Part shown: piece after piece, positions 2,877 to 60,903 of the stretch
Layout of the letters: each line of letters opens with the position of its first letter
Position numbering within the stretch: position 1 is the stretch's first letter
Assembly (NCBI GenBank): GCA_023140255.1
Contig: JAGLLX010000003.1
Location: forward strand, 7,485-71,484
Length of the DNA: 64,000 bases
From: Minisyncoccota bacterium
GTDB lineage: Bacteria; Patescibacteriota; Minisyncoccia; Phycocordibacterales; UBA12079
Reading direction: 5' to 3'
The notes under the pieces: model-generated
What the model was told of the DNA's origin: nothing
Seen by the model: only the letters and a program-made list of their open reading frames with translations
Databases searched by the model: none
Translations under genes and position numbers: made by a program

Positions 2877-3542
2877 ATGCCTATTTATAAAAAAGTAAAT
2901 GTAGATTTTTTTAAAAAATGGTCTCCCAAAATGGCTTACGTTTTAGGGTTTTTTATGGCTGATGGTTCTATTGATATAAATCCACGAGGTTCGCATTATC
3001 TTAGTATTCAAATTTGCGATAAGGAACTTTTAGAAAGTATAAAGAAGACTTTAGAGTCTAATCATAAAATATCAGTAAGGAAAGGGTTTGGGAATGAAAG
3101 CGATAAATATAGACTTCAAATAGGTAGAAAAGAAATGTTTGAAGATTTACAAAAGTTGGGAGTAAATCAACAAAAATCACATACAATGGAAATGCCAAAA
3201 GTTCCTAAAAAATATTTCGGAGATTTTGTTAGGGGTTATTTTGATGGAGATGGAAATGTTTGGGTGGGGTTTGTTCATAAGGAAAGGAAAACACCAACTT
3301 TAGTTATTCATACGGTGTTTACTTCATGTTCTAGAATGTTTTTAAATTCATTACATAATGAAATACAGGAACAAGGAATTTTAGGAGGGGGAATTATTTG
3401 CAAAAAGAATGCTTTTTGTTTAAAGTATAGTATTAACGACTCTTTAAAATTATATAAGTTAATGTATAATAGTCTTGATAACGACTTATTCTTAGAAAGA
3501 AAAAGAATTGTTTTTAAAGAGTTCGCAAAATTGCGGGTGTAG
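2877..3542 (+). CDS. Double-motif LAGLIDADG homing endonuclease (free-standing)
   Basis: Two LAGLIDADG motifs are present: YVLGFFMADGSI and FVRGYFDGDGNV. The 221-aa length is typical of a monomeric double-motif enzyme. The stop codon TAG (3540-3542) lies inside the 5' acceptor stem of the downstream tRNA-Asp. Confidence 0.8.
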   Translation: MPIYKKVNVDFFKKWSPKMAYVLGFFMADGSIDINPRGSHYLSIQICDKELLESIKKTLESNHKISVRKGFGNESDKYRLQIGRKEMFEDLQKLGVNQQKSHTMEMPKVPKKYFGDFVRGYFDGDGNVWVGFVHKERKTPTLVIHTVFTSCSRMFLNSLHNEIQEQGILGGGIICKKNAFCLKYSINDSLKLYKLMYNSLDNDLFLERKRIVFKEFAKLRV

Positions 3543-4333: not shown

Positions 4334-5050
4334 ATGACAAAATTATATATTACAGCTACACCAATAGGGAATCTAGAAGATATTAGTCTTCGTGCTTTAA
4401 GAATTCTTAAAGAAGTTGATTTCATCTTGTGTGAAGATACTCGGGTAACTAAAAAACTTTTAAATAAATACGAAATAAAAACTCCAACAATTTCATATCA
4501 TTCATTTAGCGGAAAAATTAAAACAGATAAAATATTAGAACTATTAGAAGAAGAAAAGGATTTAGCTTTAGTTTCGGATGCAGGTACTCCTACTATTTCT
4601 GACCCTGGTTTCCAGTTAGTTTCTCAAGTCAGGAAGAAATTTGGAGAGAAAGTAGAAATCTTACCAATACCCGGGGCTTCAGCTTTAAGTTCTGCTTTGT
4701 CAGTTAGTGGTCTTCCATCAGATACTTTTATTTTTTATGGATTTTTACCACATAAAAAAGGGAAGCAAAGTATTATAAATGAAATTTTAGAATCGAAAAG
4801 AACATCTGTTTTTTATGAGTCACCACATAGAGTTTTAAAAACCTTAAAAATGATTCAAGAATTATCAATAAAAAATGAATCTAACCCTAAACATTCTGTC
4901 GGGCAAGGTAAAGAAATAGTTATAGCTAGAGAATTAACTAAAATGTTTGAGCAAGTTGTTGCGGGGAATATAGGTAAGGTATCAGAATATTTTGAAAATA
5001 ATCCTGATAAAGTAAAAGGTGAGTTTGTAATAATTATTTCAGGAAATTAA
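4334..5050 (+). CDS. rsmI: 16S rRNA (cytidine1402-2'-O)-methyltransferase, tetrapyrrole-methylase fold
   Basis: N-terminus LYITATPIGNLEDISLRALRIL...CEDTR, which is typical of RsmI. Length 238 aa. Confidence 0.8.
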   Translation: MTKLYITATPIGNLEDISLRALRILKEVDFILCEDTRVTKKLLNKYEIKTPTISYHSFSGKIKTDKILELLEEEKDLALVSDAGTPTISDPGFQLVSQVRKKFGEKVEILPIPGASALSSALSVSGLPSDTFIFYGFLPHKKGKQSIINEILESKRTSVFYESPHRVLKTLKMIQELSIKNESNPKHSVGQGKEIVIARELTKMFEQVVAGNIGKVSEYFENNPDKVKGEFVIIISGN

Positions 5051-8209: not shown

Positions 8210-9871
8210 ATGAAAGACCTTAATCCTATCACATATTTCGCTGAAGCAGATCGGCGTAATAAAAGAACTCCGTTTGGCATAAAGGCTAGTGATAGAACTC
8301 GTCATGTTTATGTTATTGGTAAGACTGGTATGGGAAAATCTACTATGCTGGAAAATATGGCCGTGCAAGATATTAAAGAAGGGAATGGAATTTGTTTTAT
8401 AGATCCTCACGGACAATCAGTTAAAAAGTTTTTAGATTATATTCCAGAAGAAAGAATTGAGGATGTAATTTATTTTGCTCCTTTTGATGTAGATAATCCT
8501 ATTTCTTTTAATGTTATGGAAGATGTTGGTTCTGATAAAAGACACTTAGTGGCCCAAGGACTTCTCTCAGCTTTTAAAAAGATTTGGGGAGAAGAAACTT
8601 TTTCAGATAGAATGGAACATATTACTAACAATACTTTATTGGCTCTTTTAGAATACCCAGGTTCAACTATGTTGGGTATGACTAAAATTTTTACAGACGC
8701 AAAATATCGTAAAAAAGTTGTAGATAATATTACCGATCCATCTGTAAAATCTTTTTGGACTGATGAATTTGCTGGTTGGGATGAAAGATATAGAAAAGAT
8801 GCTTATGCTGCTATTTTGAATAAGGTAGGACAATTTACTTCTAACCCTTTAATTAGAAATATTATTGGACAGAAAAAATCATCTTTTAGTTTTAGAGATA
8901 TTATAGATAACAAAAAGATTCTTTTGGTTAATTTATCCATTGGGCAAGTAGGGGAAGCTAATGCTGATTTGTTGGGTTCAATGCTAACTACTAAAATTTA
9001 TTTAGCAGCTATGAGTCGTGCTGATGTATCAACTGAGGAATTAGCTAAATTACCTAATTTTTATTTGTATATTGATGAGTTTCAGAACTTAGCTAATGAT
9101 TCTTTTGCTGATATTTTATCTCAAGCAAGAAAATATAAATTAAATTTAACTATTGCTCACCAATATGTTGAACAAATGCCTGATGTAGTGCGAGCTGCAG
9201 TATTTGGAAACGTTGGAACGATGATTGCTTTTAGAGTAGGAGCGACTGATGCTGAGCAATTAGAAAAAGAATTTTCTCCTGAATTTACAGCTGATGATTT
9301 GGTTAATTTAGGATTTGCTCAAATTTATTTAAGGTTAATGATTGATGGAATTGGTTCCACACCTTTTTCAGCCAAGACTTTGCCGCCAATTACTAAACCA
9401 GAATTTTCCTATGAAACAGAAGTGATAGAATCTTCTAGAAAATTGTTTACTCGTAAAAAACAAGAAGTTGAGACAAATATTGAAGAATGGCTTAACTCTA
9501 CAAAGGTTAAACCACAAGAACAGCCTAAGAAAACAACAGGATCTTTTAATAAAACAAAGGAACCTTTCAGGAAAACAACAGGATTATCTACTAATAATCA
9601 AATTAATAATAAGCATACTTGTACAATTCAACCGATAACTAACAGAACTAATACAACGAATGGAAACCATAAGCCTATTGAAAAAAATAATTCATTAAAA
9701 GAGGCTTTGTCAGAAGCTTTGAAGGATTTAGAAAAAGACAATAAGAACGAATCCAATTTAGATAGCAATAACAGAAATACTTCTCTTGTGGAACAAAAAC
9801 AAAGTAAAGAGATTGCAAAAACTGATTTGGAAAAAATGTTATATGTTAAGCATCCTAAAGGAAATAACTAA
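8210..9871 (+). CDS. VirD4/TraD-like type IV coupling-protein-family P-loop ATPase (no TM segments), low-complexity C-terminal tail
   Basis: Walker A VIGKTGMGKST and Walker B LYIDEFQNLA. The N-terminus FAEADRRNKRTPFGIK...RHVYVIGKTGMGKS resembles T4SS DNA-transfer ATPases. The C-terminal ~150 aa are N/K/T-rich. Confidence 0.5.
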   Translation: MKDLNPITYFAEADRRNKRTPFGIKASDRTRHVYVIGKTGMGKSTMLENMAVQDIKEGNGICFIDPHGQSVKKFLDYIPEERIEDVIYFAPFDVDNPISFNVMEDVGSDKRHLVAQGLLSAFKKIWGEETFSDRMEHITNNTLLALLEYPGSTMLGMTKIFTDAKYRKKVVDNITDPSVKSFWTDEFAGWDERYRKDAYAAILNKVGQFTSNPLIRNIIGQKKSSFSFRDIIDNKKILLVNLSIGQVGEANADLLGSMLTTKIYLAAMSRADVSTEELAKLPNFYLYIDEFQNLANDSFADILSQARKYKLNLTIAHQYVEQMPDVVRAAVFGNVGTMIAFRVGATDAEQLEKEFSPEFTADDLVNLGFAQIYLRLMIDGIGSTPFSAKTLPPITKPEFSYETEVIESSRKLFTRKKQEVETNIEEWLNSTKVKPQEQPKKTTGSFNKTKEPFRKTTGLSTNNQINNKHTCTIQPITNRTNTTNGNHKPIEKNNSLKEALSEALKDLEKDNKNESNLDSNNRNTSLVEQKQSKEIAKTDLEKMLYVKHPKGNN

Positions 9872-11334: not shown

Positions 11335-11452
11335 GTCCCGTTAGAGATTTGGCGGGAAAAAGATTAGTAATTTAATTTGAAGATAGTTATTAAAAGTAAG
11401 GGACTTGTCCCGTTAGAGATACTTTTAATAAAGTATCTCTAACGGGATGAGT
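11335..11452. repeat. Dispersed structured element, copy 2
   Basis: Near-identical to copy 1. The internal hairpin gttagagatac/gtatctctaac is perfect. The 3' arm runs into the ATG of the GT gene at 11447. Confidence 0.7.
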
Positions 11453-12631
11453 AATAAAAGAATTTTAATATTTTCTACAGCTTATTATCCTTTTGTAGGT
11501 GGAGCTGAGGTGGCCATAAAAGAGATTACTGATCGTACTAGCGGGATAGATTTTCATATGCTTACTGCTAGAATGGATAGGACTCTATCTAAAAAAGAAA
11601 AGATAGGAAATATTTTAGTACATAGAATAGGGTTTGGGATTCCTAAGATTGATAAATTATGTCTTGCTTTTTTTGGATTTTTTTATGCTCAAAGATTACA
11701 AAAACAAAATAAATATTCAGTTGTTTGGGCTATGATGGCAAGTTATGGAGGTTTCGCTGCTTCAAAATTTAAATTTTTAAATCCAGAGATAAATTTTCTA
11801 CTAACTTTGCAGGAAGGAGATAGCCTTGATTATATTGCTAAAAGAACTTACTTTGTTAAAAAACAATTTAAAGATATTTTTATACGAGCTGATAAAATAC
11901 AATGTATTAGTACTTATCTAGCTGAATGGGCAAAAATGATGGGAGCAAGATGTTCTATTGAGGTGATTCCAAACGGAGTAGATATTAAAAACTTTTCACA
12001 AGAATATTCTGAAAAAGAATTATCTGATTTAAAATTAAAATTTAATAAAACACTAGAAGATAAGTTTTTGATTCATACGGGACGTTTAACTTATAAAAAT
12101 GCTGTAGATGATTTAATTCAAGCTCTTATTTATTTACCAGAGAGTATTAAAATATTATTGGTTGGAAAGGGAGAAGACGAAGAAAAATTGAGAGCTATTG
12201 TTCAAGAAAAAGGCTTGAAAAATAGAGTTTATTTTTTAGGATTTATTGATCATAAAGAAATTCCACAATATTTAAGAATTTCTGATATTTTTGTAAGGGC
12301 TTCATTGTCAGAAGGATTAGGAAATTCATTTTTAGAAGCGATGTTAACTTCTTTACCTGTAATTGCTACTCAAGAAGGTGGAATCGTAGATTTTTTGTTT
12401 GATGAAAAAAGAAATCCTAATAAAGAAGTAACAGGTTGGGCTGTTGATTCTAGAAGCCCTGAGCAAATAGCGGAAGCAGTTAAATGTATTTTAAGTAATT
12501 CTGAGAAAGCTAAAAAAGTTACTGATACTGCTAAAAAAATGGTTTTAGAAAAATATAATTGGGATATTTTAGCAAAAGAAATGCAAGAAAAAGTTTTTAA
12601 TAAATTATTTGGAAGCCGGGCTTCCAAATGA
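11447..12631 (+). CDS. Glycosyltransferase family 1 (GT4); the last 7 codons and the stop are supplied by a REP palindrome
   Basis: GT4 EX7E region SEGLGNSFLEAM. The C-terminus ...FGSRASK* is encoded by tttggaagccgggcttccaaaTGA. Confidence 0.75.
   Translation: MSNKRILIFSTAYYPFVGGAEVAIKEITDRTSGIDFHMLTARMDRTLSKKEKIGNILVHRIGFGIPKIDKLCLAFFGFFYAQRLQKQNKYSVVWAMMASYGGFAASKFKFLNPEINFLLTLQEGDSLDYIAKRTYFVKKQFKDIFIRADKIQCISTYLAEWAKMMGARCSIEVIPNGVDIKNFSQEYSEKELSDLKLKFNKTLEDKFLIHTGRLTYKNAVDDLIQALIYLPESIKILLVGKGEDEEKLRAIVQEKGLKNRVYFLGFIDHKEIPQYLRISDIFVRASLSEGLGNSFLEAMLTSLPVIATQEGGIVDFLFDEKRNPNKEVTGWAVDSRSPEQIAEAVKCILSNSEKAKKVTDTAKKMVLEKYNWDILAKEMQEKVFNKLFGSRASK
12608..12628. repeat. REP-like palindrome, copy 1
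   Basis: tttggaagccgggcttccaaa: a 10-bp stem with a 1-nt loop, GC-rich in an AT-rich context. Confidence 0.8.
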
Positions 12632-12643
12632 TATAATTATGTT

Positions 12644-13336
12644 ATGCCAAGAAGAAAAATTACATTTGAAAATGGGGAATTTTATCACATATATAATCGT
12701 GGAGTAGATAAGCGTAATATTGTAAAAAATAAAAATGATATTATGCGAATGTTAGAAAGTCTTGAAGTTTTTAATACAACAGAACTGATTGGAAGTATTT
12801 ATGAAGATACTCGTAGAAAAAGAAATAACCAATTTGGAAGCCGGGCTTCCAAATTGGTTGATATTCTAGCATTTAATATCTTAGATAATCATTATCATCT
12901 TGTTTTAAAACAATTAAGTGATGGAGGTATTAGTAAGTTTATGCATTCTTTTGGAACAGGTTATGCAAAACACTTTAATGAAAAATATGATAGAGTAGGG
13001 TCTTTATTTCAAGGAGTTTTTAAAGCTGAGCACATAAACTCTGATAAATATTTAAGTTATGTAGTTTCTTATGTAAATATTAATCACTTTATTCATAGTT
13101 ATGAATCATTTGGAAGTTCTATCTCTGAATGGGGAATGAGAAGCAGTTTAGAACAATATGTGGATCATAGAAGAGAACATAAGAATAAGTATTTTGAATG
13201 TGATATTGATATAATTAAAAGTAGATTTAAAAATGGAAAGGAATATTTAAAAGAAGCTATTGAAATTTCTAAAAATATTAAGGAGAGAAGAAAAGATAAA
13301 AATTTGGAAGCCGGGCTTCCAAATGATAGTTTTTAA
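12644..13336 (+). CDS. REP-associated tyrosine transposase (RAYT/IS200-like HuH Y1 transposase)
   Basis: N-terminal FYHIYNRGVDKRNIV, the HuH motif NHYHLVL, and downstream Tyr residues (KYLSYVVSY). It is flanked by, and internally contains, REP palindromes. Confidence 0.65.
   Translation: MPRRKITFENGEFYHIYNRGVDKRNIVKNKNDIMRMLESLEVFNTTELIGSIYEDTRRKRNNQFGSRASKLVDILAFNILDNHYHLVLKQLSDGGISKFMHSFGTGYAKHFNEKYDRVGSLFQGVFKAEHINSDKYLSYVVSYVNINHFIHSYESFGSSISEWGMRSSLEQYVDHRREHKNKYFECDIDIIKSRFKNGKEYLKEAIEISKNIKERRKDKNLEAGLPNDSF
12834..12854. repeat. REP-like palindrome, copy 2 (inside the RAYT CDS, in frame: QFGSRASKL)
   Basis: Identical 21-mer. Confidence 0.8.
13304..13324. repeat. REP-like palindrome, copy 3 (end of the RAYT CDS: LEAGLPN)
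   Basis: Identical 21-mer, read in the other frame. Confidence 0.8.
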
Positions 13337-13352
13337 TAAATTAATATAAAAA

Positions 13353-14462
13353 ATGAAAATTTTAATCACAACAGGAATATATCCTCCAGATATTGGAGGG
13401 CCAGCAACTTATTCAAAATTACTTTTTGATAAATTGCCAGAGAGAGGGGTAGAAGTAAAAATTTTATCTTTTGGTGAAGTTCGTAATTTACCTAAAATAA
13501 TTAGACATTTTGTTTATTTTTATAAGATTTTAATAAGAGGGCGGAAGGTAGATGTGATTTATGCTCAAGATCCAGTGAGTGTAGGTTTTCCAACTATGTT
13601 AGCTAATAAGATTTTAAAGAAAAGATTTTTGATTCGGATTGCGGGCGATTATGCTTGGGAACAAGGGGTGCAAAGATTTGAGGTAAAAGATAAGTTAGAT
13701 GATTTTTCTGCTCAAAAAGATAAATATGGTTTTTTTGTTTCTTTATTTAAGAAAATTCAGACTAAGGTGGCTCAATCTGCAGAAAGAATAATTGTACCTA
13801 GTAGATATTTTAAAGGGGTGATAGAAAATTGGGGGATAGATTCAGAAAAAATTAAGGTAATTTATAATGGGATAGATATTTTTAAAAACGTGGAAGCCCG
13901 GCTTCCACGGTTTCCACGGGGTTTAAATAATGGGGGGAAGGTTTTGTTATCAGTTGGAAGACTGGTTCCTTGGAAGGGTTTTGATGTTTTAATTGAATGT
14001 ATGCCTGAAATTTTGAAAAATTATCCTGATTTACAATTGAAAATTGTAGGTGAAGGTCCTCAAAGACAAGAATTAGAAGGCTTGATTAAGAATTTAGATT
14101 TAGAAGAAAATGTTATTTTGACGGGTCAAATTGTTAGAGAAGAATTATTATTATTAAAAAAAGAAGCTGATATCTTTTTATTTAATACTAATTGGGAATC
14201 TTTTTCTTTTGATACTGTGGAATGTATGAATTTGAGATTACCAGTTATTACTACTAAAGTGGGGTCATTACCAGAACTAATTCAGGATGATATAGACGGA
14301 ATTTTAATAGAACCAAATAATAAAAAACAAATATTAAGTGCTATTGTTAAAATTTTTGTAAATGATCAATTTAGAGAGAAAATTATTGAAAACGCCTATA
14401 ATAAATCTAAACAATTTTCTATTGAAAATACTCTAAATAACTTAGAAAAAGTTCTAAAATAA
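13353..14462 (+). CDS. Glycosyltransferase family 1 (GT4)
   Basis: Two Rossmann halves and an E..E motif near the C-terminus. A REP variant is inserted at the inter-domain linker. Confidence 0.7.
   Translation: MKILITTGIYPPDIGGPATYSKLLFDKLPERGVEVKILSFGEVRNLPKIIRHFVYFYKILIRGRKVDVIYAQDPVSVGFPTMLANKILKKRFLIRIAGDYAWEQGVQRFEVKDKLDDFSAQKDKYGFFVSLFKKIQTKVAQSAERIIVPSRYFKGVIENWGIDSEKIKVIYNGIDIFKNVEARLPRFPRGLNNGGKVLLSVGRLVPWKGFDVLIECMPEILKNYPDLQLKIVGEGPQRQELEGLIKNLDLEENVILTGQIVREELLLLKKEADIFLFNTNWESFSFDTVECMNLRLPVITTKVGSLPELIQDDIDGILIEPNNKKQILSAIVKIFVNDQFREKIIENAYNKSKQFSIENTLNNLEKVLK
13889..13909. repeat. REP-like palindrome, variant copy 4 (inside the GT CDS: EARLPRFPRG)
   Basis: cgtggaagcccggcttccacg followed by a partial direct repeat, tttccacgg. 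Confidence 0.7.
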
Positions 14463-14505
14463 ATAATTCATTTTTTTATATTCATTATTTGTTATACTAA
14501 AGATA

Positions 14506-16223: not shown

Positions 16224-17285
16224 ATGAAATTACTTATATTAACTCAACGGGTAGATAAAAATGATGATGTCCTTGGTTTTTTCCATGATTGGATAGCTGA
16301 GTTTGCTAAACGTTGTGAAAAAGTAACAGTGATTGCTTTGGGGGTGGGAGAATATGATTTACCAAGAAATGTGAAAGTTCTTTCCCTAGGGAAAGAACTT
16401 TCTAGTCAAATGTCGAAAGTCTATAAAGTCGAAAGTAAGAAAAAATATACTTTTAATTTTTATAGATATATTTGGTCTGAAAGAAATAGTTATGACAATG
16501 TCTTTGTACACATGAACCCTGAATATGTTGTTTTAGGAGGTCTTTTTTGGCGAATAATGGGTAAAAAAATAGGACTTTGGTATACACATAAGTCAGTTGA
16601 TTTAAAACTAAGAATTGCTGAAAAATTAACTCACACCATTTTTTCTGCATCAAAAGAATCTTTTCGTTTAAAAAGTAAAAAATTAAATATTGTGGGGCAT
16701 GGGATTGATATTAATAAATATATATGTAAATCAACATCTACTAGAAAAGAAATTGATATACTTTGTGTTGGAAGAATAAGCGAAATTAAAAATCAAAAAC
16801 TTTTGATAAATGCTGTTGATATTTTAGTTAATCAAAATAAGCAAAGGGATTTAAAGGTTGCTTTGATAGGAACTGCGACTTTATCTAAAGATAAACTTTA
16901 TTTAGATGAATTAAAAAATTTTGTTAATGAAAAAGGATTAAATAACAATATTATATTTGAGGGAAGTGTTCCTAATAAAGATATTCTTAAATATTATTGT
17001 AAATCAAAGATTGCGATCAATTTGTCTCCAACTGGTGGTTTAGATAAGGTTGTTTTAGAATCAATGGCCGTGGGCTTACCTACGATTGTTCTTAACAAAA
17101 CATTTAAAAATATTTTACCTAATAATTTTATAATTTCAGATAAGAATGCTTCTGTGTTAGCTGGGAAAATTAAGGAAATTTTAAAAGAGCCTGTTTTACA
17201 AAAACAATTAACAGAAAAAGTTAAAAGAGATTTTTCTTTACAAGAACTAATTACTAAAGTTCTTAATTTGTATTATGCAAAATAA
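16224..17285 (+). CDS. Glycosyltransferase family 1 (GT4)
   Basis: C-terminal Rossmann half with a GGLDKVVLESMAVGLP motif. Confidence 0.6.
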   Translation: MKLLILTQRVDKNDDVLGFFHDWIAEFAKRCEKVTVIALGVGEYDLPRNVKVLSLGKELSSQMSKVYKVESKKKYTFNFYRYIWSERNSYDNVFVHMNPEYVVLGGLFWRIMGKKIGLWYTHKSVDLKLRIAEKLTHTIFSASKESFRLKSKKLNIVGHGIDINKYICKSTSTRKEIDILCVGRISEIKNQKLLINAVDILVNQNKQRDLKVALIGTATLSKDKLYLDELKNFVNEKGLNNNIIFEGSVPNKDILKYYCKSKIAINLSPTGGLDKVVLESMAVGLPTIVLNKTFKNILPNNFIISDKNASVLAGKIKEILKEPVLQKQLTEKVKRDFSLQELITKVLNLYYAK

Positions 17286-29751: not shown

Positions 29752-29897
29752 TTTAATTCCTTTTTATTCCTCCAAGTATCAAGTTTTTATATGATTACTT
29801 AATCATACTAATTTATAGAGGGTTTTACAATAAAATCTAACGGCTCAACTCGTTGAGCCGTTGAAATTTTTGGCTTTTGATTTTATACTTATAGGAT

Positions 29898-32022: not shown

Positions 32023-32035
32023 ATATTCAAACAAA

Positions 32036-32071
32036 TAAAAAACAACGGGTCACTAGTGACCCGTTGTTTTT
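32036..32071. terminator. Bidirectional terminator (perfect palindrome) between the LOG-family gene and rel
   Basis: aaaaaacaacgggtcac-tag-tgacccgttgtttttt. Confidence 0.6.
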
Positions 32072-33588
32072 TATTTATTAGCTTCTTGAAGTTTTCTCAG
32101 GGTGGATTTGATATGCCGACGGGCCTCTGCTGTTTTTGCAATATCTAACCATTTTTTTGTAGGAGTAATAGTTTTTTTAGTCATAATATCAACTATATCT
32201 CCATTTTTTAATTTAGTATCTAAAGAAACTAATTTTCCGTGAACTTTTGCCCCGTGCATATGATTTCCGACATCTGAATGAATTGCAAAAGCAAAATCTA
32301 CAGGGCTAGAATCTGTGGGTAAATCAATAACATCTCCTTTGGGTGTAAAGACAAAAACTCTGTGTTCAAAAAAATCTTTTTTCAATTCTGAAATAAATTC
32401 TTGTCCGTCACTTTCTTCTGGATGTTTAGCTAAGTTCTTTATCCAAGCTGGAGCAGTGTTAGGGTTTTCTACTTTTTTATTTTTACTATCTAGACTATTT
32501 ATATTGGACAATAATCGTTTAACCCACATCTTAGGATCATTGGTATTCTCGTAGCTAATATCATTTTTATAAGATAAATGGGAAGCAATTCCATATTCAG
32601 CCTCTTTGTGCATTTCAGCTGTTCTTAATTGTATTTCAACGACATTCCCGAATCGAGTGAATACTGTAGTGTGTAAACTTTGATAACCATTAGGTTTAGG
32701 AAAGGCGATATAGTCTTTAATTCTTCCCGGCATAGGTCTTCTGAAATCGTGAATAATTCCTAGCACTTTATAACAATCATTTTTAGTAGGAACGATAATT
32801 CTTAGGGCAGCAATATCATAAATTTTATCAATATCCCAATGTTTCCTTTCTAGTTTCCTGTACAAACTATACATTCCTTTTATACGTGAATTACTTTGAA
32901 TATTTGTAATCCCTTCTCTAGCCAAGCGTTTTTTAATTGAACGGTCTATTTTTTTAAGAGAAATAATACTATCTTTTGTTTCTTCTCTCATTATTTCTGC
33001 AACTCTCTTATATTCTTTAGGATAAACATAAGGAAATGACAAATCTTCTAATTGTCGGTTTAAAACACCAATTCCTAAACGATAGGCTAGAGGTGCAAAA
33101 ATTTCTAGTGTTTCAGTTGCAATTCTAAGCTGTTTTTCTTTAGGAACAAATTCAAGAGTTCGCATATTGTGGATCCTGTCAGCAAATTTTATTATTAAAA
33201 CTCTAATATCTTCAGAAGAAGCCATGAATAATTTTCTAAGGCTTTCGGTATGTCTTTTTAATCCTTGGAATCTAATTTTTCCTAATTTGGTAACCCCTTC
33301 CACTAAAAGAGCAATATCATCTCCAAATTCTTCTTGAAGTTCTTCTTTTGTAGTAATTCCGTCTTCAACGACATCATGTAAAAGTCCTGCTGAAATAACA
33401 GTGGCTCCCATTCCTAATTGAGCCAGAATTTTTCCTGTTTCATAAACGTGATTAAAATAAGGTTCACCAGAATATCTTTTTTGACCAGAGTGAGCAGTCA
33501 CAGCAAAATTAAAAGCTTTTTCTAATAGCTTCATATCTTCTTTTGAAGGACTATCTATAAAAGAGATGATATCTTTGACTGTTTTCAT
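32071..33588 (-). CDS. rel: Bifunctional (p)ppGpp synthetase/hydrolase, short form (HD + synthetase + TGS; no ACT domain)
   Basis: HD domain HSGQKRYSGEPYFNHV...LHDVVED. Synthetase RIKDYIAFPKPNGYQSLHTTV. TGS domain at the C-terminus. Confidence 0.85.
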   Translation of the reverse strand: MKTVKDIISFIDSPSKEDMKLLEKAFNFAVTAHSGQKRYSGEPYFNHVYETGKILAQLGMGATVISAGLLHDVVEDGITTKEELQEEFGDDIALLVEGVTKLGKIRFQGLKRHTESLRKLFMASSEDIRVLIIKFADRIHNMRTLEFVPKEKQLRIATETLEIFAPLAYRLGIGVLNRQLEDLSFPYVYPKEYKRVAEIMREETKDSIISLKKIDRSIKKRLAREGITNIQSNSRIKGMYSLYRKLERKHWDIDKIYDIAALRIIVPTKNDCYKVLGIIHDFRRPMPGRIKDYIAFPKPNGYQSLHTTVFTRFGNVVEIQLRTAEMHKEAEYGIASHLSYKNDISYENTNDPKMWVKRLLSNINSLDSKNKKVENPNTAPAWIKNLAKHPEESDGQEFISELKKDFFEHRVFVFTPKGDVIDLPTDSSPVDFAFAIHSDVGNHMHGAKVHGKLVSLDTKLKNGDIVDIMTKKTITPTKKWLDIAKTAEARRHIKSTLRKLQEANK

Positions 33589-38394: not shown

Positions 38395-38550
38395 GGAGGG
38401 CTGGGTTGAGCCATAAAATGCTTGAATAGCTCAATCTTTTGAGCCGTTGAAGTTATTTGGTAACCGGGTTACCAAATTGGGTTTTAGGATTATTAAAAAC
38501 TCCCAATGAAATATATTTCGTTGGGAGTTTTGTTTTAAGATTTTTTTTGG

Positions 38551-57034: not shown

Positions 57035-57162
57035 TTAATTTAAATTTAACGCATAACTTTGTCGGTTTCGGAAAAATTTATTTCACCGTATTTCCAATAC
57101 GTCTCAATAAATTTTTCTTTACCTCCTCGTTCTGCATCTAAATTAAAATTAATTAAAAAAAA

Positions 57163-57203
57163 CAAAAAATCCATCGGCTCACTAGTGAGCCGATGGATTT
57201 TTT
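57163..57203 (+). terminator. Terminator hairpin upstream of leuS
   Basis: aaaaaatccatcggctcac-tag-tgagccgatggatttttt. Confidence 0.55.
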
Positions 57204-57244
57204 GTTTTTTTATCTTTAAACCTATGCTAAAATGGTTTTTAACT

Positions 57245-59762: not shown

Positions 59763-60791
59763 ATGACAACAACTTTTAATTCAAAAGAAATAGTTCAAAA
59801 TTTTCTTGAAGGACTTCCCAAAAGATCACAAGATATCTTAACTAAGAGATATGGTTTAGGTAATTCTGTGAAAAGACACACTTTAGAATCTATTGGACAA
59901 AAATATAAGATTACTCGTGAAAGAGTAAGACAAATTGAAAATCATTCAATTAAAAACATCATAAAATCTGATGATTTTTCTAAAGCAGAAAAATATTTTA
60001 ATGAATTAGTTAATATCATAGAAAGTATTGGGGGATTAGCTGAAGAAAAATCTTTGCTTGAATATTTATCAAAAGATGTTTCTGAACAAAATTATCTTCA
60101 TTTTTTATTTGTAATAGGGAATCCTTTTTATAAAGATAAAAGAGATAATGATTTTGATGCTAAATGGTATACAGATAAAAAAGTAGCTGAAAATGTAATC
60201 AAAGTTTTAAAGAGAGTTCATAGTCAATTTGAAGAAGACCAATTATTTACAGAAGTTCAGTTAATAGATTTAGTTCGCAAAGAAGCTAATAAATTAAAGA
60301 ATAGAAAAGAACTTAATGATGATCAGATTAAAAATTGGTTAACAGCATCAAGAGTAATTGGTAGAAATCCTTTTAATGAATGGGGTTTAGCTACTTCTCA
60401 AAATATTAAGATTAGAGGAATTAGAAGTTATGCTTATTTGGTTGTAAGACAAAATGGTTCCCCAATGCATTTTAAAGAAGTTGCTAAAATGATAAATAAA
60501 CATTTTAAAAAGAACGTTCACACTGCTACTTGTCATAACGAATTAATTAAAGATGAAAGATTTGTTTTGGTAGGAAGAGGGATGTATGCTTTAACTGAAT
60601 GGGGATATACTAAAGGGATAGTAAAAGATGTTATTTTAGATATTTTAAAGAAAGAAGGAAAATTAACTAAAGAATCTGTTATTGATAGAGTTTTGAAAGA
60701 AAGATATGTTAAAGAAAACACTGTTATTGTAAATCTACAAAATTCAGATTATTTTAAAAAACATAAGGACGGAACATATTCACTTATATAA
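59763..60791 (+). CDS. Sigma-70 region-4-like HTH domain protein with an uncharacterised ~250-aa C-terminal domain
   Basis: LPKRSQDILTKRYGL...TLESIGQKYKITRERVRQIENHSIKNI matches sigma-70 region 4.2. Regions 2 and 3 are absent. Confidence 0.45.
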   Translation: MTTTFNSKEIVQNFLEGLPKRSQDILTKRYGLGNSVKRHTLESIGQKYKITRERVRQIENHSIKNIIKSDDFSKAEKYFNELVNIIESIGGLAEEKSLLEYLSKDVSEQNYLHFLFVIGNPFYKDKRDNDFDAKWYTDKKVAENVIKVLKRVHSQFEEDQLFTEVQLIDLVRKEANKLKNRKELNDDQIKNWLTASRVIGRNPFNEWGLATSQNIKIRGIRSYAYLVVRQNGSPMHFKEVAKMINKHFKKNVHTATCHNELIKDERFVLVGRGMYALTEWGYTKGIVKDVILDILKKEGKLTKESVIDRVLKERYVKENTVIVNLQNSDYFKKHKDGTYSLI

Positions 60792-60795
60792 ACAT

Positions 60796-60833
60796 AAAAA
60801 TAAACGGCTCACCTAGGTGAGCCGTTTATTTTT
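60796..60833. terminator. Bidirectional terminator; the core of a 48-nt perfect palindrome
   Basis: aacataaaaataaacggctcacc|taggtgagccgtttatttttatgtt. Confidence 0.6.
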
Positions 60834-60903
60834 ATGTTTAAAAAAAGAAGTTATCTACATTTTTGCTTCTTTTAATACTTTTTTGTAGTAAAATAGAGGT
60901 TAT

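Follow-up and report, generated by a model that had tools for sequence, protein, structure and literature searches.

Y1 transposases of the IS200/IS605 family (e.g., IS608 and ISDra2) recognize subterminal hairpins in single-stranded DNA and move by a peel-and-paste route. A second group of short repeats, the Rickettsia palindromic elements (RPE), was reportedly described by Ogata and co-workers in 2000 and 2002 as "protein-coding palindromes". These palindromic repeats (RPE-1 measures about 100–150 bp) lie in frame in the genes of a reduced, AT-rich genome and are tolerated in surface loops; to our knowledge, they have no known associated transposase and are not located in the gene of a cognate enzyme. 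The closest described systems are the REP/RAYT (TnpA_REP) pairs, or "REPtrons", of Proteobacteria (Nunvar, 2010, PMC2817692; Bertels and Rainey, 2011, PMC3116915; Ton-Hoang, 2012, PMC3333891), for which a structure of the Escherichia coli RAYT bound to a REP hairpin is available (4ER8; PMC3479197). Passages of Di Nocera et al. (2013; PMC3733652) report intragenic, translated REPs in Opitutus terrae, Rickettsia conorii and others, including copies in DNA replication/repair genes, as well as flanking repeats that overlap tyrosine-transposase genes at either their 5' or their 3' end. Those REPs are scattered insertions tagged with GTAG/CGTC, whereas the palindromes reported here are untagged and occupy fixed sites; the same passages describe no conserved ORF-internal transposase sites, promoter fusion or concerted replacement at fixed sites.

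The window, i.e., the whole 64-kb stretch of DNA that was analyzed, belongs to an AT-rich genome, as a preliminary description had stated (the GC content is about 29%), and contains one copy of an ORF (12644–13336, + strand) for a RAYT-like Y1/HUH transposase of 230 aa, with the motifs YHIYNRG and H83-Y84-H85 (HUH). The closest database proteins carry the source names Pacebacteria/Patescibacteria. That this ORF encodes a HuH Y1 transposase had been proposed earlier and was borne out by a Pfam match (PF01797, Y1_Tnp) of 29.4 bits against a cut-off of 23; the match covers residues 70–145 and is parted from the N-terminal strand by an insert that contains one of the palindromes (s1, below). H83, H85 and Y143 are invariant across 32 homologs, and Y143 is a candidate catalytic nucleophile. 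An AF2 model of the transposase (pLDDT 84) has an order of secondary-structure elements that fits the beta-alpha-beta-beta-alpha-beta-alpha fold; the best PDB match by Foldseek was 4ER8 (E 2.4e-6, TM 0.67 on the target), followed by TnpA of IS608/ISDra2, and the matches to 4ER8, 2A6M, 2VJV and 2XMA each had a probability of 1.00. A profile search of PDB sequences with the transposase gave nothing at E ≤ 1. The further proposal that the protein is of the RAYT type held in part: 4ER8 as best fold match and the protein's own palindrome flanking and within the gene speak for it, and a score of only 27 bits to the NCBIfam RAYT equivalog NF047646 (cut-off 80) and the lack of a 5' GTAG tag speak against it, so that membership of the classical RAYT family is not established. 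No tnpB partner adjoins the gene in the window or in the annotated loci of relatives. The contigs of some relatives carry two to three diverged paralogs, which are 65–90% identical on the same contig and have different hairpins; in L075, the paralogs of the contig share the positions of their hairpins, and each differs from the others in stem type.

Three exact copies of the 21-mer TTTGGAAGCCGGGCTTCCAAA were located at 12608–12628, 12833–12853 and 13303–13323, a count reached in 0 of 100 shuffles (chance expectation, 0.02 matches per window). Its 15-nt core GGAAGCCGGGCTTCC occurs again at 13892–13906 in the opposite loop orientation, within the palindrome CGTGGAAGCCCGGCTTCCACG (13889–13909), and no other copy was found in the 64-kb window at up to three mismatches of the 21-mer or up to two of the core. 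The preliminary description had counted four palindromes around the transposase and had read all of them as coding and in frame; both statements stand, with three exact 21-mers and one core-identical variant and with the peptides FGSRASK*, QFGSRASKL, LEAGLPN and EARLPRFPRG. All six frames of the 21-mer are free of stop codons, and 21 nt is divisible by three; the same DNA is read in three different frames/strands in the window (FGSRASK, LEAGLPN and EARLP). Folded as DNA, these copies are stable hairpins with energies between −9 and −16 kcal/mol and z-scores between −3.5 and −8.4.

The sites are arranged as follows: (i) s0 (12608–12628; extended palindrome 12607–12629) is located 5' of the transposase start and codes for the final seven codons (FGSRASK) of a GT4 glycosyltransferase (GT4#1; 11447–12631, + strand), which ends in LFGSRASK* with the TGA following the palindrome; (ii) s1 (12833–12853) lies within the transposase ORF, encodes F64–K70 (QFGSRASKL) and extends to a perfect palindrome of 33 nt (12827–12859); (iii) s2 (13109–13129, about +465 from the start) is a decayed relic within the ORF, tttggaagttctatctctgaa, with the peptide FGSSISE, whose folding is lost in the window (z +0.37) and intact in the close relatives L101, L102 and L100; and (iv) s3 (13303–13323) is placed at the 3' end of the ORF in a different frame (NLEAGLPNDSF), scores as terminator-like on the + strand and has TGATAGTTTTTAAT after it, a stretch with homology to the upstream sequence of the second GT4 gene (GT4#2; 13353–14462, + strand) in a relative without the transposase at this junction. 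The dispersed copy at 13889–13909, with an identical core, a flipped loop and the outer stem GTGG/CCAC, falls in the inter-domain linker of GT4#2 (VEARLPRFPRG). A related intergenic palindrome, ATTTGGTAACCGGGTTACCAAAT (38455–38477), shares the outer stem and loop region of the window copies and differs by two compensatory inner-stem changes; this palindrome, the decayed s2 and the 33-nt extent of s1 had been overlooked in the preliminary description. In the AF2 model, s1, s2 and s3 map to coil segments of low pLDDT (blocks 67, 63 and 46), and the s1 residues F64–K70 form a predicted loop directly before strand 72–79, which precedes the HUH strand.

At s0 the palindrome is fused to the promoter. 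Its left arm holds a −35-like TTGGAA (12609–12614), and 17 nt past this hexamer lies the extended −10 element TGATATAAT (12629–12637, + strand; TG at 12629–12630 and TATAAT at 12632–12637), 6 nt ahead of the ATG at 12644. A promoter consensus scan returned a match of 10/12, plus the TG. The TGA at 12629–12631 doubles as the stop codon of the upstream GT4 gene. The block CCAA(A/G)TGATATAAT is invariant in four relatives, the motif CCAAGTG-nTAnnAT-5 to 8 nt-ATG recurs across homolog loci, and TGnTAnnnT is present within 40 nt of the start in 56 of 74 homolog genes. Since the extended −10 stands only 6 nt before the ATG, the transcript of the transposase gene is probably leaderless.

To place these sites in a wider context, we surveyed 93 distinct homolog genes from Patescibacteria with 33–100% identity to the window protein. 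Perfect GC-rich palindromes formed four sharp peaks at about −40, +180, +460 and +670 from the start, which correspond to s0 (within 80 nt of the start), s1 (+150 to +250), s2 (+450 to +500) and s3 (+650 to +750); the occupancies were 75%, 53%, 31% and 66%, respectively, against a background of 2.2% per 50-nt bin. When 74 genes were scored for at least 9/10 pairing with no preselection for palindromes, the four sites gave 85%, 59%, 46% and 76%, and three control segments of the same genes gave 0%. The upstream copy is non-coding in many homolog loci, and the density of palindromes in the gene is ~70-fold above that of the flanks. An alignment of 53 hairpins at s0 showed a symmetric CACTTGG...CCAAGTG with perfect stems, from which an asymmetric 5' tag (GTAG/GTGG) was absent.

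The sequence of the stem is shared within a gene and differs between genes. The inner 7-nt arm was identical in 80% of 215 within-gene site pairs vs. 1.1% between genes; 77 distinct inner arms were counted among the homolog genes, and arms at orthologous sites were almost never common below 60% protein identity. In one alignment (A3), three lineages with the arms AAGCC, TGGCC and AACCC displayed compensatory change at all four sites. Stems that differ between lineages and match within the gene indicate concerted replacement. Two stem types coexist within one gene in L018 and L096, which on these sequences appear to have been caught mid-replacement. Loop orientation between sites was the same in 98 cases and flipped in 70. 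A separate covariation count drew on palindromes preselected for pairing and is therefore not an independent test.

Outside the gene, cognate copies are sparse. The flanks of 68 loci contained 0.037 cognate copies per kb vs. 0.002 per kb for non-cognate arms, an 18-fold enrichment; 7 of 22 cognate flank copies were intragenic, and about one third were in frame in genes. The window itself has one extra copy and one variant outside the transposase gene. The same 19-mer was found in 15 loci, 14 in genomes of Patescibacteria and one in an Omnitrophota MAG, and in other genomes it lies in frame within GatB, DnaG and a NifS-like gene. With so few copies outside the gene, the principal role may be something other than "REP mobilisation". 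The four sites conserved in 93 genes and the low density in the flanks contradict the earlier suggestion of recent insertions or an active burst of REP proliferation. The idea that the copies are insertions into genes survives for one of them: among the window copies, only that in the GT4#2 linker behaves like a lineage-specific insertion when orthologs are compared. This linker is hypervariable and a recurrent site of palindrome cassettes; the window version is longer than most orthologs', which hold a different sequence there, and the orthologous site in L103 holds GTGGAGGTCCGACCTCCAC, with two compensatory pairs differing. The read-through of s0 by GT4#1, on the other hand, is conserved in L100 and L102, and in L096 GT4#1 reads through a solo palindrome.

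Polymorphism was evident at the strain level: between L096 and L104, which are nearly identical, the linker cassette is swapped and a palindrome of 20 nt has been cleanly inserted. A duplicated palindrome bounds the 695-bp transposase unit, and the junction GT4#1-[one palindrome]-GT4#2 of L096 equals that of the window minus this unit. Three relatives have the transposase in the same glycan locus, with a divergence like that of its neighbors (62–67% vs. 39–73%); its position within the locus shifts between the window and L100 on one side and L096, L098, L103 and L101 on the other. The palindromes in the GT4 linker of L103 and L104 are non-cognate to the transposase on the same contig; there is therefore not just a single hairpin family at work, and a further enzyme may be involved as well. 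Side by side in these genomes are several unrelated families of palindromes (CCTGCC..GGCAGG, GTGGAGGTC.. and CGGCTCA..).

Like REP/RAYT pairs, this locus combines a Y1/HUH fold that most closely matches the 4ER8 structure with a probably single-copy and mostly vertically inherited gene that has its own short GC-rich palindromes on both sides; the sequence of the palindrome differs from lineage to lineage in step with the protein, and REPIN-like inverted doublets occur in some relatives (L031, L037, L038 and L075). Unlike in REP/RAYT, two conserved cognate palindromes are internal to the ORF and translated, the promoter incorporates the upstream copy, and the hairpins are perfect and symmetric, without a 5' GTAG/GTGG (or CGTC) tag or a bulge. 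Classical RAYT and IS608 enzymes recognize a guide tetranucleotide and stem irregularities, both of which are missing here. The flanking copies usually have the same or a random loop orientation rather than a systematically inverted one, their density in the flanks appears very low against hundreds of copies per genome, and the protein (about 230 aa) has extra segments and falls far under the NCBIfam RAYT cut-off. As had been surmised, our literature searches turned up no RAYT ORF with REPs inside it, nor did they yield an account of the four-place hairpin arrangement for a repeat/transposase pair of this kind. In-frame insertion relative to orthologs, as in RPE, is seen here in the GT4#2 linker, the L096/L104 cassette, DnaG and GatB; the present hairpins are 21–33 nt long and enzyme-linked, hence the likeness to RPE is one of analogy and not of membership. 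A unit of about 700 bp, a promoter in the left end and insertion beside a specific sequence recall IS200/IS605. In contrast to that family, the perfect palindromes at s0 and s3 do not differ from each other in the window and usually do not in relatives, extra internal hairpins are present, the gene is probably single-copy and locus-stable, and no tnpB adjoins it.

We consider it probable, with moderate confidence, that the locus is a REP/RAYT system ("REPtron") in a variant form specific to Patescibacteria, composed of a single-copy Y1/HUH gene and its cognate hairpin and inherited largely vertically. The cognate hairpin is a perfect one of 21–33 nt: its conserved outer stem reads (C)ACTTGG/CCAAGT(G), or TTTGG/CCAAA in the window, its inner stem of about 4 bp differs between lineages, and its loop measures 3–5 nt. 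In the promoter, the left arm of s0 supplies the −35-like TTGGnn and the right arm the TG of the extended −10; s1 and s2 are accommodated in frame in predicted surface loops of the protein, and s3 lies at the 3' end. A few more copies are present elsewhere, and some of these are read in frame within other genes. The transposase is envisaged to bind the hairpin when extruded in single-stranded DNA and to cut and rejoin there, and in this way may overwrite the hairpins at existing sites again and again. Repeated overwriting would leave one stem type across the sites of a genome while lineages diverge. Now and then the enzyme would seed new copies or swap short cassettes, and it may have moved the 695-bp gene unit between hairpin sites; its binding at s0 could render transcription autoregulated.

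Perfect two-fold symmetry would also fit a dimeric binder of double-stranded DNA, and the palindromes might accordingly be mainly cis-regulatory, with s0 as promoter/operator, s1 and s2 as roadblocks or mRNA structures and s3 as terminator. They would then act as double-stranded operators or RNA hairpins, identity within the gene would reflect selection for one specificity instead of copying, and copies elsewhere would be incidental. The joining of s0, in most genes, to an extended −10 with constant spacing to the ATG, the terminator-like score of s3 and the concentration of palindromes in the gene agree with this; we nevertheless judge it unlikely, as simultaneous compensatory changes at four sites and genes with two stems are hard to obtain by selection alone, the 18-fold excess of cognate copies in flanks and the polymorphism of near-identical strains point to mobility, and the fold is that of an enzyme processing hairpins in single-stranded DNA, with HUH and Tyr intact. 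Lower still is the probability we give to an autonomous IS200-like insertion sequence of 695–716 bp, with s0 and s3 as end hairpins, that inserts by peel-and-paste beside a target hairpin. Its size and its bounds (identical hairpins on the same strand) suit such an element, as do the L096 junction, which resembles an empty or solo-hairpin site, the varying position of the gene in the locus, the paralogs on some contigs and the significant fold matches to IS608/ISDra2 TnpA. Against it, the 64-kb window has only one copy, the gene is locus-stable and diverges like its neighbors, same-contig paralogs have different hairpins with no identical copies among them, the two ends are alike and perfect instead of being imperfect, different from each other and accompanied by cleavage tetranucleotides, and s1 and s2 are left unexplained.

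The coexistence of unrelated palindrome families and the gathering of non-cognate palindromes in the GT4 linker would be expected if the palindromes were independent selfish or mutational elements, mobilized by another enzyme or made by template switching, for instance, that accumulate in permissive loops with the transposase as a bystander; loop flips would then be the outcome of enzyme-free, stem-mediated inversion. Permissiveness alone does not account for four positions over 93 genes, one of them non-coding at a fixed distance from the ATG, nor for the hairpin-free control segments or the L075 paralogs, and we regard this explanation as very improbable. Peptides of the form LGxxxSK(L/W) do recur at s1 and s2 in homologs, as they would if the 21-mer repeat were ordinary coding sequence for a conserved peptide motif. 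We give that account practically no credence: the use of the same DNA in three frames/strands and the non-coding s0 of many loci refute it, and the variable positions are constrained to self-complementarity, for which the protein offers no rationale.

Beyond the REPtron variant that we favor, we raise, as a tentative and rather doubtful possibility, that the four hairpins, far from being passive passengers, are where a self-addressed system for rewriting hairpins does its work. Using a master copy, the enzyme would time and again replace the inner stem and loop of existing hairpins, those in the gene and promoter of the enzyme itself included, and the specificity of the protein and its DNA sites would thereby be kept in lock-step; the gene unit and short coding cassettes would also be shifted between hairpin sites. 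As the hairpin bears −35-like and TG elements, its copies could be portable promoters seeded in the gene-dense genomes of Patescibacteria. Such rewriting, if true, would be concerted evolution of a new mode, in which an enzyme drives the changes in DNA that is translated.

In the window, which is AT-rich (GC about 29%), the 21-mer TTTGGAAGCCGGGCTTCCAAA has exact matches at positions 12608, 12833 and 13303 against a chance expectation of 0.02 matches, and its 15-nt core, with the central base flipped, recurs at 13892 within CGTGGAAGCCCGGCTTCCACG (13889–13909). According to the ORF table, the copies are read at the C-terminus (LFGSRASK-stop) of the glycosyltransferase gene GT4#1 (11447–12631), inside (QFGSRASKL) and at the end (NLEAGLPNDSF) of the gene for the REP-associated tyrosine transposase (RAYT; 12644–13336), and inside (VEARLPRFPRG) the glycosyltransferase gene GT4#2 (13353–14462). 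The preliminary description had reported these copies together with their reading frames, and the exact matches and ORF table bore this out. Folded as single DNA strands, the copies yield hairpins with energies between −9 and −16 kcal/mol (z −3.5 to −8.4); copy 2 is a perfect palindrome of 33 nt. None of the six frames of the 21-mer contains a stop codon, and its length is divisible by three. Two further elements had been overlooked: a decayed copy at 13109–13129 (peptide FGSSISE) that has lost its folding, and an intergenic palindrome, ATTTGGTAACCGGGTTACCAAAT, at 38455–38477 between convergent genes. The latter shares the outer stem and centre of the RAYT hairpin, differs in two compensatory inner-stem pairs, and may either be left over from an older type of stem or have been produced by a second enzyme. 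On the 3' side of the GT4#2 palindrome, at 13889–13925, GCTTCCACG-GTTTCCACG was observed as an imperfect 9-nt tandem repeat encoding LPRFPR, which may represent the right arm of a second type of stem (GGAAAC), slipped or copied by half. An Rfam scan of 12000–14500 (E ≤ 1) matched no known RNA family. The reading of the repeated 21-mer as ordinary coding sequence was refuted, and explanations by a restriction site or a peptide motif were discarded, because loops and inner stems are free to vary and the copies are read in different frames.

The product of ORF 12644–13336 scored above the cut-off of Pfam Y1_Tnp (29.4 bits; cut-off 23) and matched the NCBIfam RAYT equivalog weakly (27 bits; cut-off 80). 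More than 1000 homologs were detected, those named being Paceibacteria, Parcubacteria or Patescibacteria; of the clusters in a 50%-identity library, 916 matched at E ≤ 1e-30 and 10,797 at E ≤ 1e-10. The HUH histidines H83 and H85, Y143 and the N-terminal YH..NRG were invariant among 32 aligned homologs. The structure nearest to the AlphaFold model (pLDDT 84, pTM 0.84) was 4ER8, the E. coli REP-associated tyrosine transposase in complex with a REP hairpin (E 2.4e-6), followed by the IS608 and ISDra2 TnpA proteins. The link to RAYT and IS608 comes only from this fold comparison; a profile search of PDB sequences returned no relatives. Family scores, invariant residues and model similarity together identify the protein as a divergent Y1/HUH transposase with a RAYT-like fold.

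The positions of the palindromes were compared in 80 metagenomic loci encoding homologs and in contigs of closer relatives, amounting to 93 distinct genes. Perfect, GC-rich palindromes with a stem of at least 7 bp fell into four sharp peaks relative to the start codon, over a background of 2.2% per 50-nt bin: s0, upstream of the start (−50 to −1), in 75% of the 93 genes; s1 (+150 to +250) in 53% and s2 (+450 to +500) in 31%, both inside the ORF; and s3, at the 3' end (+650 to +750), in 66%. A covariation count used sequences preselected as palindromes and hence is not independent proof; the unbiased measure was a test without such preselection, in which the best hairpin had at least 9 of 10 pairs at s0, s1, s2 and s3 in 85%, 59%, 46% and 76% of 74 genes, and in 0% for three control segments of the same genes. 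In the protein alignment, palindrome-encoded peptides stand at three conserved places and co-vary within one protein, for example GTRGS/GTRGS, GGRAT/GGPAT with LVAGPP, and GTPSS/GTPSS. The window sites (s0 at −36, s1 at +189, the decayed s2 at +465, s3 at +659) agree exactly with those of the family, so the REP announced inside its own RAYT is indeed present, not as a one-off insertion but as part of a conserved family architecture. The segments encoded at s1 (residues 64–70), s2 (156–162) and s3 (221–227) are coils of the lowest confidence in the model, and translation of the palindromes appears to be tolerated.

In the generic hairpin, the outer stem, (C)ACTTGG...CCAAGT(G), is conserved, the inner stem of about 4 bp is variable, and the loop has 3–5 nt. 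A total of 77 distinct inner 7-nt arms were found; the arm was identical in 80% of 215 pairs of sites within a gene, compared with 1.1% between genes, and at orthologous sites a shared arm was rare below 60% protein identity. In a DNA alignment of the window and three relatives, AAGCC/GGCTT, TGGCC/GGCCA and AACCC/GGGTT are swapped in compensatory fashion at all four sites, while the coding sequence around them is otherwise alignable. Judged from these sequences, a copying or replacement process must lie behind the stem changes, because independent point mutations in both arms, at four places and in step, are implausible. Two stem types within one gene were seen in L018, where s3 differs, and in the relative's contig L096, where a new type stands at s0 and after s3. 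Of the site pairs, 98 had loops in one orientation and 70 in opposite orientations; such a mixture is expected from stem-mediated loop inversion or from copying in either direction, with a possible further contribution, at the coding sites, of selection on the central codon.

At most loci the right arm of s0 (...CCAAGTG) is followed directly by nTAnnAT, with the ATG 5–8 nt further on, and 56 of 74 genes have TGnTAnnnT no more than 40 nt from the start. A consensus scan of the window identified TTGGAA (12609), a 17-nt spacer and TATAAT (12632–12637) with a TG upstream, matching at 10 of 12 positions; the block CCAA(A/G)TGATATAAT is invariant in four relatives. The s0 hairpin thus contributes a −35-like hexamer as well as the TG that extends the −10 element, and the RAYT transcript is likely leaderless, because only 6 nt separate the −10 from the ATG. 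The fusion of a hairpin to a promoter of leaderless type suggests built-in autoregulation, presumably through binding of the enzyme at s0.

Copies outside the RAYT genes were sparse. In the flanks of 68 loci, cognate stems occurred at 0.037/kb versus 0.002/kb for non-cognate stems; of 22 such cognate copies, 7 lie within ORFs, 2 at gene ends and the remainder between genes. Of the 15 loci detected when one genome per GTDB species was scanned with the 19-mer core, 14 belong to Patescibacteria MAGs and the remaining one to an Omnitrophota MAG; no MAG had more than five, and no locus had clustered copies. GatB, DnaG (as a tandem pair) and a NifS-like gene contain the core in frame, and it is also found just upstream of map, glyS and ssb. 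In a NifS-like cysteine desulfurase (L010, about 4692–4710, minus-strand ORF, residue 317), the palindrome encodes HLEARLPSN where these enzymes have a conserved ...RLP..N.S motif; here the element may have replaced similar native sequence instead of being simply inserted. The inter-domain linker of GT4#2 is hypervariable among orthologs and repeatedly carries palindrome-coded peptides, including a 47-nt perfect palindrome in L103, one of 35 nt in L106 and one of 29 nt in L104. Since these are not cognate to (do not share the stem of) the RAYT on their own contig, several hairpin families coexist, and the notion that dispersed copies always match the neighboring RAYT was dropped on account of the L103 and L104 linkers. 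Between the linker copy of the window and the palindrome that L103 has at this site, exactly two compensatory pairs differ; these changes convert the linker copy to the stem of the window RAYT, a single case that is suggestive of tip replacement. L075 carries three RAYT paralogs on one contig (2239–2820, 10001–10666 and 11462–12130; 65–90% identical), with palindromes at the same gene-relative positions and doublets at s1; the 65% copy has a stem type to itself, and one type is common to the two copies of 90% identity.

Near-identical strains provided a view of recent changes. The GT4#2 proteins of L096 and L104 are 96% identical and differ in the linker only (L096 8195–8241 versus L104 8527–8571), where 42 nt are swapped in frame for 39 nt containing the 29-nt palindrome, the DNA on either side being 100% identical. 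L104 also has a clean 20-nt palindrome insertion, CTGCCTACCGGCAGGCAGGG, at 9099–9118 between GT4#2 and GT4#3, and the GT4#1/GT4#2 junction of L096 (7617–7641) holds a chimeric palindrome with a left arm of one type and a right arm of another. At that junction the order is GT4#1, AATAAATTA, one palindrome, TGGTAGTTTTTAATGAATTA and the ATG of GT4#2; in the window, AATAAATTA is followed by s0, TGATATAAT, the RAYT, s3, TGATAGTTTTTAATAAATTA and the ATG. Comparison of the two junctions shows the RAYT unit of 695 bp to be bounded by a duplicated palindrome; the unit was either inserted at a hairpin or lost from L096 via s0–s3 recombination. A recent insertion as the origin of the overlap of the GT4 C-terminus with s0 was rejected, the overlap being kept in L100, L102 and L096. 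In the window, as in L100, the RAYT is placed between GT4#1 and GT4#2; in L102 it likewise follows a C-terminus of GT4#1 type, in L096, L098, L103 and L104 it comes after GT4#3, and in L101 it stands between GT4#3 and GT4#2. Despite these shifts it has been kept within the same glycan locus, and its divergence is similar to that of its neighbors (62–67% identity versus 39–73%); the window has a single copy.

Other repeats were recorded in the region. A second family of long palindromes, with the core CGG(C/G)TCA(C/A)..(T/G)TGA(G/C)CCG, occurs at 29839–29862, 32033–32076, 57156–57211 and 60789–60840; the last three have A/T runs on either side and resemble bidirectional terminators, and the same core is also present on a relative's contig (L105 11123–11164). 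Within 11337–11452, an inverted repeat, ACTTGTCCCGTTAGAGATACTTT / AAAGTATCTCTAACGGGATGAGT, overlaps the start of the first GT4 gene (start codon at 11447), with a further direct copy of CCCGTTAGAGAT about 70 nt upstream; the element may serve to regulate the glycan locus. A translated 30-nt palindrome unrelated in sequence to the RAYT hairpin, GAAAGTTCTTTCCCTAGGGAAAGAACTTTC, lies at 16373–16402 within the glycosyltransferase ORF 16224–17285. Two tRNA-Met (CAT) genes about 90 nt apart were noted at 2479–2718, followed by tRNA-Asp at 3533.

The evidence best supports a variant of the REP/RAYT system specific to Patescibacteria, with the cognate hairpin in the gene's own promoter, reading frame and 3' end and sparsely dispersed elsewhere; the earlier interpretation, a REP–RAYT module with REPs in frame in three genes, is supported in part. 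By analogy of fold and with known RAYT and IS200/IS605 enzymes, the enzyme would act on hairpins within single-stranded DNA, overwrite their tips, move cassettes and the gene unit, and autoregulate its gene by binding at s0. Some probability belongs to three rival readings: the palindromes may be purely cis-regulatory, the RAYT unit may be an autonomous IS200-like element, or independent palindromes may have accumulated with the transposase as a bystander.

Coding palindromes are known from Rickettsia. RAYTs with flanking REPs, their vertical inheritance and REPIN doublets have been described (PMC2817692, PMC3116915, PMC5581495), as have intragenic REPs and tyrosine-transposase genes whose ends are overlapped by repeats (PMC3733652). 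Within an incomplete coverage of the literature, conserved internal cognate palindromes in a RAYT ORF are undescribed as far as we found, and no description was found of promoter fusion of cognate palindromes, of their concerted replacement, or of the Patescibacteria clade of such RAYTs itself; results on RAYT/REP in Patescibacteria/CPR were unrelated mentions and one preprint with merely a K07491 match near rbcL.

The REP/RAYT field has yet to explain the recognition and spread of REPs by RAYTs, as well as the long-term matching of enzyme and repeat. The family constitutes a natural specificity series of at least 77 inner stems, each with its own protein and with three or four copies of the putative substrate in and around each gene; because stems and proteins are paired and each gene holds copies, the recognition rules are testable by swapping stems and protein segments. 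It also shows that very small genomes can maintain a repeat within the coding frame of its cognate enzyme as well as in housekeeping genes (DnaG, GatB, glycosyltransferases), and the in-frame repeats bear on the origin of insertions and linker variation in Patescibacteria proteins. Cassette swaps between strains suggest that surface-glycan loci have an active source of microdiversity.
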